Shown here one piece after another: positions 1 through 64,000 of a stretch of 64,000 nucleotides of DNA. The notes below the pieces were generated by a model. It saw only the letters and a program-made list of their open reading frames with translations, did no database searches and was not told the DNA's origin. The stretch's first letter is position 1; the number at the start of each line of letters is the position of its first letter. Source of the stretch: Eledone cirrhosa (taxonomy: Eukaryota); the NCBI GenBank assembly GCA_964016885.1, contig OZ024743.1, forward strand, positions 154,380,001-154,444,000, given 5' to 3'. The translations under genes were made by a program, and so were the position numbers.

Positions 1-16
1 CTGATCTATATTATAT

Positions 17-72
17 TTTATCTGATGAAAGCACGCCATAATTTAACTTGGTGTCCTTGAAATATGTATAAT
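17..72 (+). ncRNA. Hammerhead ribozyme motif (type I) in ~120-bp repeat, copy 1
   Basis: CTGATGA at 22-28; helix II aagcacgcca/tggtgtcctt (imperfect); GAAA at 59-62; tatGTA triplet ending 68; helix I tta/taa with one extra U before the core. Confidence 0.6.
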
Positions 73-466
73 GAAATAAATATGGTTTTATAAATATAGT
101 TTCCATTTGTTAATATATCGTATATATATATATATATATATATATATATATATATATATATATATATATATATATATATATGTATATATATATATATATA
201 TATATATATATATATATATATATATATATATATATATATATATATATATATATATATATAAATAAATATATAAATATATATATATAAATATATATATATA
301 TATAAATATATATATATATATTTATTCATTTATTCATTTATTTATTTACAGTATTAACAATTGTTTCATTAATCAGATGGTTCTAAAATCCGGTGATCTT
401 TTTTCTTGTGTCAAACAACGCCGGATGTTAAAACTAGGGAAAGATAATTTGCTTCGAAATCACTAG

Positions 467-558
467 GCGTATCTGAGGAACTTGCGAATCCAGAGTCAGG
501 TTCGATCCACAAACAAATTGCACCTGACCTGTTCACCGGAGAAATAATTGTAATACGT
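467..558 (+). ncRNA. Hammerhead ribozyme motif with long helix II
   Basis: Helix I gcgtat/atacgt; core CTGAGGA at 473-479; ~60-nt helix II region with gtcaggt/acctgac; GAAA-taatt-GTA at 541-552; AATAAA follows. Base of helix II is degenerate. Confidence 0.65.
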
Positions 559-807
559 AATAAATTGTGTTCCGATGCATGACTGATTCTTCATTTTCCA
601 CTGTAACATACTCGACTCCGAAGGAGCATAGAGTGCTCAACCGCCATACTGCCTATGGATACATCCTAGCAACGATACGACATATATATATATATATATA
701 TATATATATATATATATATATATATATATATATATATATACATACATATTTATAAAAATTATAAAAAATAAACAAAGAAGCCTTCAATACATCACAAGTC
801 TTTATTA

Positions 808-848
808 GCTGACAATGTTTCGTCCCATTAATAAGGACTCATCAGAGC
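808..848 (-). ncRNA. Minimal type I hammerhead ribozyme (pLTR of the adjacent PLE)
   Basis: Minus strand reads gct-CTGATGA-gtcc(ttattaatg)ggac-GAAAC-att-GTC-agc, then aataaa; downstream of and co-oriented with the PLE ORF. Confidence 0.85.
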
Positions 849-59695: not shown

Positions 59696-60320
59696 ATATA
59701 TATATATATAAATGAAAGGTATAGAAAATATTGTAGCAAAAAGCCAACAGTATTCCATAATATATAAGTGACTATAGCGTCAAAATAGGAAAAATAGTTA
59801 ACGTAAGATGTGAGAAAAATAATTCAAACTCATCTCAAAGACAATCAGGATATAGATTCATCCACAGAATTTAGTGAAATCCAGGGAAAAATCAATAGAG
59901 CCTTAACACACGATGAAATATAGTTTAAAATACTCATCCTTCAATTTGGAAAAACTTCAAATGCTCTGTATAGTCATAAAGACTATTTCACGAAAAGTTT
60001 CAGTGGAGATGGTCACGGTTGGCATTCGATCCTCAGCAGAGCTCAGCTCGATAACCAAAATTCTCACAGATTAATATGCCAAAAAGGGAATTTAAAACAG
60101 GCTGGTTCACCATCATGCGTGATTATATATATATTATATATATATATATATATATATATATATATTGTTATACTTTGGGAGGGTCATGTTGCCAATAAGA
60201 AACACACGCACCAGTTGCTTTCACTTCAATTTAATTTATTATATATTTATAAATTTACAAATTTATAAATTTCTGGTTGGTTGGTTGGTTCCACAACCAG
60301 ATAGTTGTTTATATATATAT

Positions 60321-60365
60321 AGTCATATTTCTTTCGTCACACACTCTGTGACCTCTTCAGTGACT
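60321..60365 (-). ncRNA. Minimal hammerhead ribozyme in a PLE pLTR
   Basis: agtca-CTGAAGA-g-gtcaca(gagtg)tgtgac-GAAA-gaaa-TA-tgact; ~300 nt downstream of the PLE stop codon. Confidence 0.8.
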
Positions 60366-60670
60366 GGGGGTTTCTTTCTTCGTTTCTGTGCCTTTCCTTT
60401 CTTCTATCCTACGCCATTTTGTTTGTGTGTGGGTTGCGTGCTCCGTTTGCGCATGCGCCACATCCGGGTGTCTGTGTGTGTTTGTGTTCATTTTTCTATT
60501 TTTCTATTTATATTTTTCTATTTGTTTGTTTATTTATTTATTTATTGTTGGTTGGTTGTTTGTTCTATGTGTGTGTGTGTTTTCATTTTGTCTTGTGTGT
60601 GTTTTCATTTTGTGTGTGTTTTCAATTGTAAGTTGTTTGTTCTATGTGTGTGTGTGTTTTCATTTTGTCC

Positions 60671-61814
60671 TTAATTGTAAGTTGTGATGTTGCTGTTCCA
60701 CTCATATTTTCTATTTAATTTTGGTTTTAATTCTTTTATGCTTACTGCCTCTGTAATTTGCCTAAACATTGCGTCTTTCTTGTGTGTGGATTCTATTTTT
60801 ATTTCTATGCTCTCTAATTTACCTCTGTGTTCTATCTTAGCATGTTGGTAGAGCACAGATGATTCTTTATTATCTTGGAGGTCTCGCCAGTGTTCATTTA
60901 TTCGTTCCCCTATACTACGAGCTGTCTCACCTATGTACACTATATTTTTGTTTCTACATTGTCCTTCAGTACATCTTATGCTATATACTACATTTCTAGT
61001 TTTACAGTTAATATGGGGGCTTATTTTACAGGTTATACATTTCTTATCTATACATGAGGGTCTTTGGAACGGGTTTGTCTTGCTAATAAGTGTTTTTACG
61101 GAGGTACCAGGTCTTTCTACTATCTTAATATTGAGATTATGTTTCTTTAGGGCCCTTCTAAATTTGTAGGCTAGTTCGCCTCTAGGGGTTGTATTGATGA
61201 ACATTACACTCTGGTATTTATTGCTATCATACCATGAGTTTATTCTATTGGCCTTGTTCTTAGTTCTTTCTATTCTATTCCAAAATTTGCTCCTATACAA
61301 GGGGCAGGTCCCATTTATGTCATTATTTACCATTTTTTCCCATTTGGTTCTGGCTCCTTTATACACTCTGATTCTATCTCTCTGATTGTAGCCAGAGAAC
61401 TGCATACGGTGGATGAAGTGTTGTATGTGTCTCTCTAGTTCTTCGGGGTTGCACATGCGGGACACATTTCTCATCACCCGTACCAAATCCGCAATCAGTA
61501 TGTTGATTTTGGTATGGTCCGAAATGGCCGAGTTTCGGTGGATCAGATGTTTGGAAGTCATGGGTTTGGCATAATGGGAATGGAGGATTTGTTTTTGGTT
61601 GTTAATTGTATCTAACCAGAGCTCTGTGTCTAGTACAGGTAATCGATGGTTGGGGTGTCGACTTGGGTAGTCTATAGTAATTCTAATGCTCTGCTGGATG
61701 GAGTTTGCTATTTGGTGGATGCTTTCCATTGTGTTTTTCTCTACTTCCTGACTGTTCTTTAGTGGGGGTGTCTTAACTACGATGTTTATATCATCTACGT
61801 AGCGGGAGTACATT
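60671..61814 (-). mobile_element. Penelope-like element 3' half (RT end, thumb, GIY-YIG), open frame
   Basis: YSRYVDD..LPVLD..HYAKP..SGY..CITC..NCKTRNVVYSIRC..YIGETARSIGERINEH..HAKIEH..EAVSI..LN. Confidence 0.93.
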
Positions 61815-61918
61815 AGAGAGTTACTATAGACTACCCAAGTAGACACCCCAACCATCGATTACCTGTACTAGACACAGAGCTCTGGTTAGATACAATTAAC
61901 AACCAAAAACAAATCCTC

Positions 61919-64000
61919 GAATAATACACACACACACGGAGACAACAACAACACACATCAACAACAACACACATCAACAACAACAACACACACGCATTCA
62001 ATGCCTCTCACCACCACCACAATCTTAACAAACACACAGACACAGAAAACAAGTAATGACAGTAGCACAGAAATCAGAGAAATAAGAGAAAGTAATAGGA
62101 TTAAAAGGAGAAGGAGATGGGAGACTAAGGACAAAGAGAATAACCAAGACGAACACACAGACACACAAAATAGGGTAGATAACAATATTGAGCCAGTGGA
62201 AAGAGACAGGAGTAATTATGAGAGACATAGAAACAACCATGAAGCTGAGGCTGCTGCTGTTGGTGGAAATAGAAACAACACTAACAATAACAATAGCACT
62301 AGTACACATAAAGCAGCAGCCTGGAACTCTCCGATTTATAACCCCTCCGATAAATCATTCGACCTACGACGAGTCCACGCCACGACTTTGCCATTTAACA
62401 AACGCACGCAGTTGCCGTCGCAGGTCGATAAATAAACAGAAGCAAAATTTAGTATAGCTAAATCCGAACTTAGAAATATTATAGAACAGTATAGCAAGAA
62501 GCATAATAGAATAGAGGCCCAGCAACTGGGAGAAGAATCTGCAAATGGCTTGCGTAAGCTCATGCAGCGCTCGCGTAATGGAGAGATAGCATGCTTTCCA
62601 ACAGACAAGTCTGGCAGAATGTCGGTTGACAGCCTGCCAAACTACATCCAGGCAATGCAACCCCACATCACTAACACAAGAGAGGTAACACTACAGGAGC
62701 ATGAGGATAGAGAAAAAACCCTCAATGCCCATATGGTGATGTGGACAAATATAATGCAGCCCAACAAAAGGACTGCCAACAACTTCCAGGCCTGGAACAA
62801 TGACGTGCCGGCGTTGTATGGGCTTCGAAAAGACCATAAAACGGGCTGGGACCCTGTCGCGGGACCACCAACACGGCCAGTCTGTGGGGCTAACATTGCT
62901 AGTAACTACAGACTGTCCTACCTCCTCTCCCTGATCATACGCCCCATCATTGAGATGTCCCCAGATGTGTGTGACAGCACGGAGGACCTCCTCAGCAGAA
63001 TCGGCGCGGGTAACCGATCTGGGGACCTAACAAACTGCATAATAGGCAGTATGTATGTTGTGTCCCTGTATCCATCTATTGACGTGGATTTTGCTGTGGA
63101 GAAATGCGTCGAAATGATCAGCGAGAGCAAGGTTGAGTTCCGTGGGATTGATACCAGTGAGATGTGACTTCTACTTAAGCTTACCCATAGTAATAGTTAC
63201 CTAGACACTTATGACCTTAGCAACCTGTGCCCTACAAGACCAGCAAGAGGCAGACCACCTACCATTACCTCAATGGCCAAGAAAACCCACACAGATAGAT
63301 GGAACGGGTGGACCAGAGCCATACGGACACCCGAAAACCACGATGAACTGAAGAAAATGATTGCACATGCGGTAGGGGCCAGCATAAAATTAACCCTTAA
63401 GGAACATATGTTCAAATTAAATGGTAAAACATATGCCCAAGAGGAAGGAGCAGCCATTGGTGTTAGCATTGCAGGCGACATAGCTAACTTATTCATGGTA
63501 TGGTGGGACAGTAGACTTAAACAAAAACTTAATGAACAATTAGAAGACAGCTTAACCCTGACAATGTACTCCCGCTACGTAGATGATATAAACATCGTAG
63601 TTAAGACACCCCCACTAAAGAACAGTCAGAAACTAGAGAAAAACACAATGGAAAGCATCCAGCAAATAGCAAACTCCATCCACCAGAGCATTAGAGTTAC
63701 TATAGACTACCCAAGTCGACACCCCAACCATCAATTACCTGTACTAGACACAGAGCTCTGGTTAGATACAATTAACAACCAAAAACAAATCCTCCATTCC
63801 CATTATGCCAAACCCATGACTTCCAAACATCTGATCCACCGAAACTCGGCCATTTCGGACCATACCAAAATCAACATACTGATTGCGGATTTGGTACGGG
63901 TGATGAGAAATGTGTCCCGCATGTGCAACCCCGAAGAACTAGAGAGACACATACAACACTTCATCCACCGTATGCAGTTCTCTGGCTACAATCAGAGAGA
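61919..64000 (+). mobile_element. Penelope-like element RT region (same family, opposite strand), runs off the window
   Basis: TDKSGR, LYGLRKDHK, TRPVCGA, V.SLYPSI, QEEGAAIG, YSRYVDD; 63563-64000 is near-identical to the reverse complement of ~61377-61814; stops at 62433 and 63165. Confidence 0.92.

Follow-up and report, generated by a model that had tools for sequence, protein, structure and literature searches.

Hammerhead ribozymes (HHRs) are known from Penelope-like elements (PLEs) of the Hydra clade, which carry a CxCX5C linker and RWK and DKT motifs and target (TA)n (Craig et al. 2021, PMC8557442). In metazoan PLEs, minimal forms (min-HHRs) lie in pLTRs, are probably dimeric and have low activity in vitro, with approximately 2,000-9,000 stated per genome (Cervera and de la Pena 2014, PMC4209133). 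Furthermore, in non-LTR retrozymes each unit of a tandem contains a single type I HHR (Cervera and de la Pena 2020, PMC7229834; Li et al. 2026, bioRxiv 10.64898/2026.07.22.740005). The link to PLEs, the dimer-type helix III with its palindromic sequence and the preference for (TA)n targets have been published before; what is new here for Eledone cirrhosa is the scale and the long helix II. We analysed a 64,000-nt stretch (the window) and a sample of 990 kb, taken as 99 blind 10-kb stretches of the 3-Gb genome. We consider it highly probable that the motifs are hammerheads of type I situated in the 3' repeats of numerous Penelope-like families and of tandem units that are likely non-autonomous, present as 5'-truncated copies on (TA)n, with predicted dimer self-cleavage through a palindromic helix III and a long helix II that is likely selected. 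This reading builds on motif anatomy, family structure, covariation, the observed linkage of families C, D, E, G and X to PLE ORFs, and the tandem arrangement of families B and Z.

The motifs resemble those tabulated for the Hydra clade (PMC8557442 File S2) in being type I and near the 3' end, in palindromic helix III, (TA)n insertion, CxCX5C and DKT, and in an extra N10/N11 (U-U mismatch) that is frequent at the helix II base. They differ in that helix II is at most approximately 26 nt in the 26 File S2 rows, whereas it measures approximately 62 nt in family C, 99 nt in family E and 116 nt in relatives of E, and in that dozens of families occur in one genome, X with a U4A core. As with min-HHRs, they lie in pLTRs, mostly solo or in close inverted pairs, form many consensus families per genome and are predicted dimers; unlike here, the published descriptor (PMC4209133) limits loop 2 to 3-10 nt and permits no insert in helix III, and G10.1-C11.1 is conserved in min-HHRs but often absent in our families. 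Likewise, tandem units are shared with non-LTR retrozymes, and axolotl HHR_Amex2 has the same U-U mismatch at the helix II base, whereas several tandem families here have a helix II of 40-95 nt, and the estimated total exceeds the 126,247 motifs reported for axolotl in a genome approximately a tenth the size. A precedent for length comes from Selaginella PLE-X1 (PMC8557442 File S2, marked deviating), whose PLE-borne HHRs have an approximately 50-nt helix II; these are two plant examples in a table without structure or covariation, and the 80-116-nt rods and branched forms here exceed them. In literature searches that covered largely openly accessible papers, we found nothing on elongated helix II in retrotransposon hammerheads beyond the papers cited, no description of a hammerhead with U4A, no report on octopus hammerheads or cephalopod Penelope ribozymes, and nothing on these findings among genome-wide work from 2021 onwards.

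The preliminary description had listed 12 window sites from at least seven sequence families, with a helix II of approximately 11 to 99 nt and mostly beside (TA)n. Each coordinate corresponds to a type I CUGANGA...GAAA...UH motif or a copy of one; the sites fall into eight repeat families, helix II measures 11-99 nt, and at 11 of the 12 a (TA)5 or longer starts 39-440 nt 3' of the core. Ten of the 12 sites have intact core boxes, the exceptions being the G5C and U4C copies described below. Family F1 is represented by an intact motif at 14..78 (plus strand, core 22, descriptor match) with an 8-bp helix I, a 30-nt helix II and a self-complementary helix III, and by an inverted pair with 30-nt helices II, the intact 4367..4431 (minus, core 4423) and the decayed 4625..4689 (plus, core 4633; G5C); 19 copies at ≥80% identity occur in the sample. 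Family C (467..558, plus, core 473; 1780 first-look candidates) has an intact core in a slightly decayed copy, with an approximately 62-nt helix II rod containing internal loops. The family G motif (800..856, minus, core 845; 714 candidates), with a 17-nt helix II and a 3-bp helix I plus internal loop, lies in the 3' end of a 5'-truncated Hydra-clade PLE on the minus strand (760..4153) that ends on (TA)n and retains an RT piece (3414-4073) and a GIY-YIG piece with a CxCX5C linker (2333-2869). At 7968..8007 (plus, core 7973), the family H motif (397 candidates), which passes a looser descriptor only, has an 11-nt helix II (U-U mismatch plus 2 bp) and a palindromic helix III, and is preceded by an inverted partial copy. 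The two family A copies on the minus strand (684 candidates), both with a 50-nt helix II, are 11735..11819 (core 11813; core intact, stem base decayed) and the decayed 13416..13498 (core approximately 13492; U4C). Between them lies a 695-nt tandem of family B (2157 candidates) on the plus strand: its first unit (12050..12168) begins at the core, lacks the 5' strand of helix I and is the exception to (TA)n proximity, with (TA)n 994 nt downstream of the core, and the second (12741..12863, core 12745) has one helix I mismatch and a 95-nt branched helix II made of a 9-bp stem and two hairpins. Helix mutations relative to family copies elsewhere are present at 473, 11813 and 12745.

Further along the window, a Hydra-type PLE is represented by its endonuclease end (GIY-YIG, 14218..14718, plus); in the 3' end of this element lies the family X motif (15649..15699, plus), whose core is U4A (CAGAAGA) and whose family copies have a helix III of 5 bp; 16 copies occur in the 990 kb, and U4A was present in every copy inspected. 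The intact family E motif (45639..45774, minus, core 45765) combines a 99-nt rod-like helix II with a palindromic helix III and lies approximately 710 nt downstream of a frameshifted Hydra-type GIY-YIG remnant (46478..46928, minus); among its 1053 candidates, the best 40 are 97-100% identical. Family Z (59963..60042, minus; 1684 candidates) is intact, with a 40-nt helix II and a stable 6-bp helix III of the monomer type. The family D motif (60321..60365, minus, core 60360; 11 copies in 990 kb), with an intact core, an 18-nt helix II and a non-palindromic helix III, lies 310 nt past the ORF of a PLE with a CX4CxxC linker of Neptune/Nematis type (60671..64000, both strands), in which a minus-strand RT-EN ORF (60671-61858) is joined to a plus-strand inverted copy reaching the window end. 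The complete motifs of families Z (core 60036, minus) and X (core 15654, plus, U4A) and half-motifs at 351-398 and 58496-58531 (both minus) had been overlooked in the preliminary description. CTGANGA at 5221, 11045, 21117, 49078, 59411 and other positions belonged to no complete motif and was left uncounted, and a G5C match at 36790 was treated as chance. Every nameable long ORF in the window is transposon-derived; window repeats were identified by dust-masked self-BLAST.

Several lines of evidence connect the motifs to PLEs. A same-strand PLE protein was found within approximately 1.5 kb upstream in 18 of 30 family E loci (16 with a Hydra-type EN, approximately 660-1020 nt upstream), 6 of 20 family G loci (EN approximately 1.45-1.5 kb upstream) and 9 of 20 family X loci; a Hydra-type EN also lies upstream of family C in loci L280 and L281, and family D motifs follow their ORF by 197-310 nt. 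In locus L277, an F1-class HHR is preceded by a Hydra-type frame that stays open for 766 codons and encodes CNCPIKNKC, DKT and RWI in place of RWK. The RT is followed by a C-terminal GIY-YIG in one orientation in this frame and in the window elements (4073-2333 and 61858-60671). Hydra-clade traits were compared by eye with PMC8557442: the window linker CNCRLSNNC fits CxCX5C, and the linker of the family D host, CIDKKCITC, has the CX2-5CxxC form of the Neptune and Nematis clades. The CxCX5C linker, DKT, an RWK-like motif and (TA)n insertion suggest that most hosts belong to the Hydra clade. Pfam matches to the window PLE proteins were below curated cut-offs (GIY-YIG, E 2.7e-4; RVT_1, E 1.8e-4), the L277 frame had no Pfam match, and a metagenome scan with the Hydra ORF gave 147 pattern matches and zero relatives. 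Copies share fixed 3' ends on (TA)n and vary at their 5' ends, and the PLE hallmarks of 5' truncation, inverted 5' copies and partial tandems are present; (TA)5 occurred within 400 nt of 69 of 78 motifs, against 46% of random positions. A PLE protein match within 2.5 kb upstream was found for 12 of 114 sample motifs, compared with 3% of random positions, and most host assignments therefore rest on architecture. ORF linkage is weak or absent for families A (1 of 30 loci), B (1 of 30), B2 (0 of 15), Z (1 of 15) and H (2 of 15), and extended A and B loci had no ORF of their own among the output listed. Naiads, which have an N-terminal EN and lack canonical HHRs, were rejected as hosts because in the ORF-linked families the EN comes after the RT and complete HHRs are present.

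Helix III was fully self-complementary in 99 of the 116 sample motifs and in 6 of 34 shuffle matches, a property that the descriptor did not require; stable hairpins in X and Z and the mostly non-palindromic family D are the exceptions. Further, 38 of the 116 matches are tandem motifs, in units of 310, 430, 467, 556, approximately 633 and approximately 695 nt with one type I HHR each. Family B units are spaced 691-697 nt apart (four spacings among 30 loci) and family Z units approximately 633 nt (three overlapping loci of 15, forming one array), and arrays of 17 and 9 units occur in L142 and L147, the latter with a 51-nt helix II. By their architecture, the B, Z, L142 and L147 units are likely candidate non-autonomous retrozyme-like elements, and the B units may derive from an autonomous parent with a long UTR.

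The preliminary description, which did not recognise that behind the motifs stand Penelope-like and retrozyme-like repeats with HHRs and a (TA)n preference known from earlier work, had proposed a very large, under-counted set of HHRs, and this proposal held. The 990-kb sample contained 116 intact motifs, spread over 43 of the 99 stretches, whereas each of 12 shuffles gave 1-5 and the reversed sequence one; the genome total is estimated by extrapolation at approximately 240,000-350,000. In Schistosoma the HHR total is in the tens of thousands, which could mean a comparable density per Mb. The window's density, which had been called high, is above that of shuffled sequence (four strict matches, at 22, 4423, 45765 and 60360, against a mean of 0.2 and a maximum of 2 in 40 local dinucleotide shuffles) but at or below the genome average (62 against 117 per Mb), so that the window is no outlier in this genome. 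A stricter first descriptor, demanding immediate helix II pairing and a second helix III pair, gave two window matches (mean 0.17; 0 of 100 shuffles as high) and was replaced as too strict. The hammerhead models of Rfam 15 share the catalytic consensus; at gathering score they caught none of the 77 descriptor motifs in 15 sampled loci, and in the window they gave no hammerhead at gathering score or E≤5, where Rfam as a whole gave one tRNA at gathering score and 118 weak matches (E≤5), nearly all on microsatellites. When the min-HHR descriptor (PMC4209133 Fig. S7, loop 2 of 3-10 nt) was emulated on the sample's own matches, 3 of 116 were kept, rising to 48 with helix III freed, and to 81 and 102 with loop 2 raised to 30 and 100 nt. 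The suggestion that loop II caps cause the loss is thus correct in part, but Rfam also misses short-helix families.

Helix II measured 49-145 nt in 18 of the 78 non-redundant sample motifs. Among 25 family representatives, 15 long helices folded at z<-2, compared with 2 of 25 upstream controls, and 16 still did so with 12 nt trimmed off each end; the HHR-constrained fold (monomer, helix III open) lay 0.2-7.6 kcal/mol above the MFE in all 25. Across 14 related families, chosen by a descriptor requiring basal pairing, the columns without change were those of the core, the first pairs of helix III and a single helix I base; 12 of 19 pairs changed on both sides, and 92.9% of cells paired, against 37-52% in slid controls. 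The long-class sets are small, at three to five related families each. In the 60-63-nt class, 3 of 20 helix II pairs changed on both sides with 91% pairing, a count equalled by 12 of 500 shuffles; in the branched 95-97-nt class, both hairpins were kept in three families with six two-sided changes within helix II; and in five 49-53-nt families, misaligned by MAFFT and so read by position, one basal pair is CG, UA, AU, GC and GC beside a conserved pyrimidine-rich internal loop. Where RNAalifold paired cores wrongly, helix II pairs alone were used. Internal loops are conserved in the long helices and, by eye, have no pairing partner in the 30-nt flanks. As in type I hammerheads, helix I is open, and covariation is present in helices I and II on either side of the core; all four bases occur at N7 in the sample motifs. 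G10.1-C11.1 is lacking in many families (helix II starts and ends with G and C in 18 of 78, and a mismatch at its base is the best-scoring arrangement in 27 of 78), which is not disqualifying because natural U-U and weak helix II stems are on record (PMC3088659, PMC7229834).

These data suggest that the long helix II is a folded extension likely kept by selection and not a product of decay. Its main competitor accepts the PLE/retrozyme origin and holds that long helices are neutral baggage of template switching or inverted duplication, with marginal activity and only the core kept, perhaps in a non-catalytic role. PLEs do produce inverted duplications readily (7898-8035 and 61377-64000), helix II drifts within a class (99, 104, 115-116 nt) via short internal duplication, ten of the 25 long helices fail z<-2, Naiad PLEs proliferate without canonical HHRs (PMC8557442), and family X has spread with its U4A core. 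Nevertheless, self-generated hairpins would not be expected to show compensatory changes, or internal loops that are conserved and unpaired between diverged families, and the core is nearly invariant genome-wide (99 wild-type matches against at most 3 per single-base variant, U4A excepted), so that we judge this account unlikely. Far less probable is domestication by the host for processing of transcripts at these loci: many copies are intact and domesticated HHRs are known in amniotes (PMC6155905), but every site is one of the hundreds to thousands of candidates of a dispersed repeat family, window copies are decayed relative to their families, and the nameable long ORFs belong to transposons. 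Chance box matches in AT-rich, low-complexity DNA, although long loops do dominate false positives (helix II >35 nt in 30 of 34 shuffle matches) and at least one real match (L135 +1675, 145 nt) looks mis-paired, are ruled out by the shuffle comparisons for window and sample, by 39 sample motifs with helix II >35 nt against a shuffle mean of 2.5, and, together with covariation, by the 22 of 27 non-redundant long motifs whose helix III is palindromic.

For selected hammerheads in PLE 3' repeats, published work points to the following course. A transcript reading through a tandem or partial-tandem copy would hold two HHRs, which would exchange helix III strands and then cut after NUH, freeing an RNA of unit length that may circularise. 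(TA)n would be nicked by the PLE protein, which would copy the RNA from its 3' part, mostly stopping early, so that each insertion event would leave an HHR-bearing stub beside (TA)n. HHR density would then be incidental to the expansion of many families, and the majority of solo copies are probably silent fossils. In our model, the basal 3-9 bp of a long helix II would hold the catalytic geometry, the conserved internal loop would sit at the usual place of loop II and form the tertiary contact, and the distal part, whether rod or branched, would be tolerated because it folds away from the core. Self-cleavage of element RNA by these motifs is a prediction from sequence. A bolder reading is possible, and we offer it tentatively: this would be the largest hammerhead census yet (approximately 0.25-0.35 million), a fifth to a third of it an undescribed active class in which helix II is a modular domain of 50-116 nt, built as a rod with conserved internal loops or as a three-way junction, replacing the canonical loop-loop contact or acting as a family-specific handle for the PLE RT, with a U4A-core ribozyme spreading alongside.

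Animal ribozyme censuses lean on Rfam and loop-capped descriptors, which here lose over half and up to all of the motifs; HHR counts, and calls that HHRs are absent from a PLE clade, may therefore be wrong; Craig et al. (PMC8557442) mention Naiads whose core halves lie 35-50 nt apart and match no descriptor. Dozens of independently evolved families with a covarying long helix II constitute a natural library of stem insertions. Helix II is the stem used by engineers for aptazymes. The long-helix families further provide a direct route to testing the function of PLE hammerheads, which the papers cited above call unclear. If the copies are transcribed, intronic and intergenic RNA would be shaped by cleavable sites at a density of approximately 100 per Mb.

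All twelve positions named as hammerhead ribozyme (HHR) cores in the preliminary description of the window carried either core boxes arranged as in type I or copies of such motifs, and the proposed minimum of seven families became a count of eight. The wide span of helix II lengths was also borne out, running from 11 (family H), 17 (G), 18 (D), and 30 nt (F1) to 50 (A), about 62 (C), 95 (B), and 99 nt (E), where letters denote repeat families distinguished by their HHR. Core boxes were intact at ten of the twelve sites, those at 4633 (G5C) and 13416-13498 (U4C) being mutated, and the helix I 5' strand was missing at 12050. 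Four of the twelve sites satisfied a descriptor that demands the core, at least 4 bp in helix I, and at least four basal pairs in helix II; 40 local shuffles averaged 0.2 hits. The motifs at 473, 11813, and 12745 were slightly decayed, with complete folds in same-family copies elsewhere. Furthermore, two motifs were new to the list, namely a complete monomer-type motif of family Z (60036-; 59963-60042, minus strand), with a 6-bp helix III and within a TA-flanked piece of about 420 nt, and a U4A motif of family X (15654+; 15649-15699, plus strand) with a 5-bp helix III. HHR 3' halves at 351-398 (-) and 58496-58531 (-) belonged to two more families, of the 82-nt and 26-nt helix II types, respectively. 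The families are dispersed repeats: first-look candidates genome-wide numbered at least 2157 (B), 1780 (C), 1053 (E), 714 (G), 684 (A), and 397 (H), with 1684 for Z, while 19 copies of F1 and 11 of D were present in a 990-kb sample.

This blind sample was drawn from the 2,995,841,428-base assembly by requesting 100 evenly spaced 10-kb stretches, content unseen. The 99 that existed lay on the four largest contigs (56 stretches) and on 23 other chromosome-scale contigs (43 stretches), small unplaced contigs being left out. A very large set of HHRs had been suspected, with a comparison to shuffled sequence proposed as the check; using the above descriptor, fixed in advance on the window families, we obtained 116 hits in 43 of the 99 loci, versus 1-5 in each of 12 shuffles. 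They comprised 58 solo hits, 38 in tandem, and 20 in inverted pairs, and clustering at 82% yielded 35 clusters with a blind-sample member. Stratified extrapolation gave 349,000 HHRs genome-wide (bootstrap 230,000-492,000), about 8,000 of them false by the shuffle rate, or 237,000 (173,000-304,000) when one was counted per family per locus; this is a lower bound, as the 2-bp helix II of family H, the U4A core of family X, and the long helix III of family Z went uncounted. For this genome the window is not exceptionally dense: its strict density, 62/Mb, does not exceed the 117/Mb averaged over the sample. Schistosoma may match the HHR density per Mb found here. The largest printed count that we found, in an incomplete coverage of the literature, was 126,247 in the axolotl (PMC7229834). 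One HHR-rich sampled stretch also contained a 5S rRNA match (L187:248-366, minus strand, 101.6 bits).

Most of these motifs escape standard searches. Comparison with Rfam returned no hammerheads in the window and none in 15 loci, chosen as the richest in hits, that together held 77 of the 116. When the RNAmotif descriptor printed in Fig. S7 of PMC4209133 was emulated on our hits, it retained 3 of the 116, or 48 with helix III freed; 81, 100, and 102 were retained with loop 2 allowed up to 30, 50, and 100 nt, respectively, in agreement with the under-counting by loop-limited descriptors that had been predicted. Helix II exceeded 35 nt in 39 hits (27 of 78 non-redundant), versus a shuffle mean of 2.5, and reached 49 nt or more in 18 of the 78 non-redundant hits, one of which is likely mis-paired.

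We then turn to the carriers of these HHRs. Copies from 30 loci each of families A, B, C, and E shared a 3' end fixed on (TA)n or a related repeat; their 5' ends were ragged. Family G formed the 3' end of an element at 760-4153 with the order reverse transcriptase (RT) then GIY-YIG endonuclease (EN). GIY-YIG matches were located about 660-1020 nt upstream of family E in 16 of 30 loci and, mostly at about 930 nt, upstream of family X in 9 of 20 loci, and EN lay 1.3-1.5 kb upstream of family C in two extended loci. Family D was found 197-310 nt downstream of the ORF type seen at 60671-61858, and its host has a CX4CxxC linker of the Neptune/Nematis type. An F1-class HHR followed a 766-codon open frame in L277, another stretch of this genome. 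Families A and H were not linked to a parent ORF, Penelope-like element (PLE) protein being present upstream in 1 of 30 loci for A and in 2 of 15 for H. The CxCX5C linker and the DKT and RW motifs seen here match the Hydra clade as defined in the text of PMC8557442; (TA)n insertion and HHRs are described for this clade (PMC8557442, section 11 and File S2). The tandem spacing of family B (691-697 nt; 695 in the window) and family Z (about 633 nt) is similar to that of non-LTR retrozymes.

Several other arrangements were observed. The L277 frame (1220-3520, plus strand) is of Hydra RT-EN type and had no match in a Pfam search. Four HHRs from three families (helix II of 37, 83, and 95 nt) lie in the 2.7 kb downstream of it. 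Family Z formed arrays of about 633-nt units in L306-L308. Retrozyme-like arrays occurred at L142:4045-9164 (17 units of 310 nt, with a strand switch mid-array) and L147:4212-9766 (at least nine units of 556 nt, with a 51-nt helix II). In the window, a 109-nt segment at 4045-4153 (-), located at the 5' end of the truncated element, is one that other family G copies have directly next to their 3' end. This 'tail'-like signature exceeds in length the 30-40 bp known from PLEs.

The window is AT-rich with many microsatellites, and all its nameable long ORFs are retrotransposon pieces. A repeat of about 325 nt flanked by (TTA)n (19492-20162, 25275-25689, and 29192-29548; once in tandem) adjoins two RT elements (20430-24069 and 25439-28331, minus strand), which have no obvious APE domain and a seeming (TTA)n preference. 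A degraded LINE at 29635-34817 (+) comprises an APE (31909-32385) and RT pieces, with an Asn/Ser-rich ORF1-like frame upstream. An inverted repeat of about 520 nt (8288-9965; 93%, inner arms 963 nt apart) lies beside an RTE-like RT fragment (9870-10529). A tRNA-like sequence at 37935-38006 (+; Rfam 38.7 bits) between 67-nt direct repeats (37778-37844 and 38049-38115) is possibly a tRNA-derived SINE.

Helix III was wholly self-complementary, the signature of a dimer, in 99 of 116 hits versus 6 of 34 shuffle hits, and the descriptor does not demand this feature. Across 14 hand-picked families with a helix II of 26-42 nt, only the core columns, those of the first pairs in helix III, and a single base of helix I were invariant. 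Covariation was present at 12 of 19 pairs, and none of 500 column shuffles matched the pairing or covariation score, although these families are related, which inflates such tests. Long helices II were represented by 25 sequences from all loci (45-130 nt, helix III palindrome ≥0.85). Their median folding z was -3.2, with 15 of 25 below -2 versus 2 of 25 upstream controls, and 16 of 25 were below -2 with the selected basal part trimmed off. Four classes were distinguished: (a) 49-53 nt, in which a conserved pyrimidine-rich internal loop separates a 5-6-bp stem from an apical one, with one basal pair taking four Watson-Crick forms (five families); (b) 60-63-nt rods with 91% pairing and three two-sided pairs in helix II (five families); (c) 95-97-nt three-way junctions with six such pairs (three families), more branched forms occurring at 82-94 nt; and (d) 99-116-nt rods with just two two-sided pairs (four close relatives). 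Against a selected fold, the family sets behind the covariation are small, a mismatch often replaces G10.1-C11.1, and the HHR-constrained monomer is never the MFE, lying 0.2-7.6 kcal/mol above it. We judge the long helix II to be a selected structural domain; our guess is that it serves in tertiary contact via the internal loop or in RT binding.

A core-variant scan returned 99 wild-type hits and at most three for each single change except U4A, which gave six, five of them in family X. All 22 motifs listed from 20 family X loci, picked by likeness to the window copy, were consistent with U4A, as were the 12 copies listed of 16 in the blind sample, one of which is covered only from the G after the variant site. 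U4A could be a natural variant of the core that is tolerated, or the family could be spreading despite a dead ribozyme. Family X is a young high-copy Hydra-type PLE family, with its 16 copies in 990 kb extrapolating to about 48,000 genome-wide.

Along the lines of PMC4209133 and PMC7761336, two HHRs in a tandem or partial-tandem transcript would dimerize through helix III and cleave, giving unit-length or circular RNA; nicked (TA)n would then prime reverse transcription by the element protein, and early stops would leave HHR-bearing stubs. Inserted copies extend 40-440 nt beyond the core, so the template must run on beyond the cleavage site, in keeping with a circular or tandem template initiated internally (PMC11167929). 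Solo copies would be mostly inert. Families Z and X could cleave as monomers, given their stable helix III.

Parts of this picture are already known, including HHRs in the terminal repeats (pLTRs) of PLEs, the dimer-type palindrome, and multiple families per genome (PMC4209133), the N10/N11 mismatch and (TA)n targeting in Hydra elements (PMC8557442), tandem retrozymes of PLE origin (bioRxiv 10.64898/2026.07.22.740005), and a weak or U-U stem II (PMC3088659). A helix II of about 50 nt has a precedent in two Selaginella PLE-X1 HHRs (PMC8557442, File S2). In the literature searched, of which coverage was incomplete, we found no census this large, no covarying or branched 60-116-nt helix II in animal PLEs, and no family-wide U4A core. 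Judged from sequence, the HHRs of Eledone cirrhosa are real and belong to a known biological class; their long helix II structure is new, their scale is unusual, and their self-cleavage is predicted.
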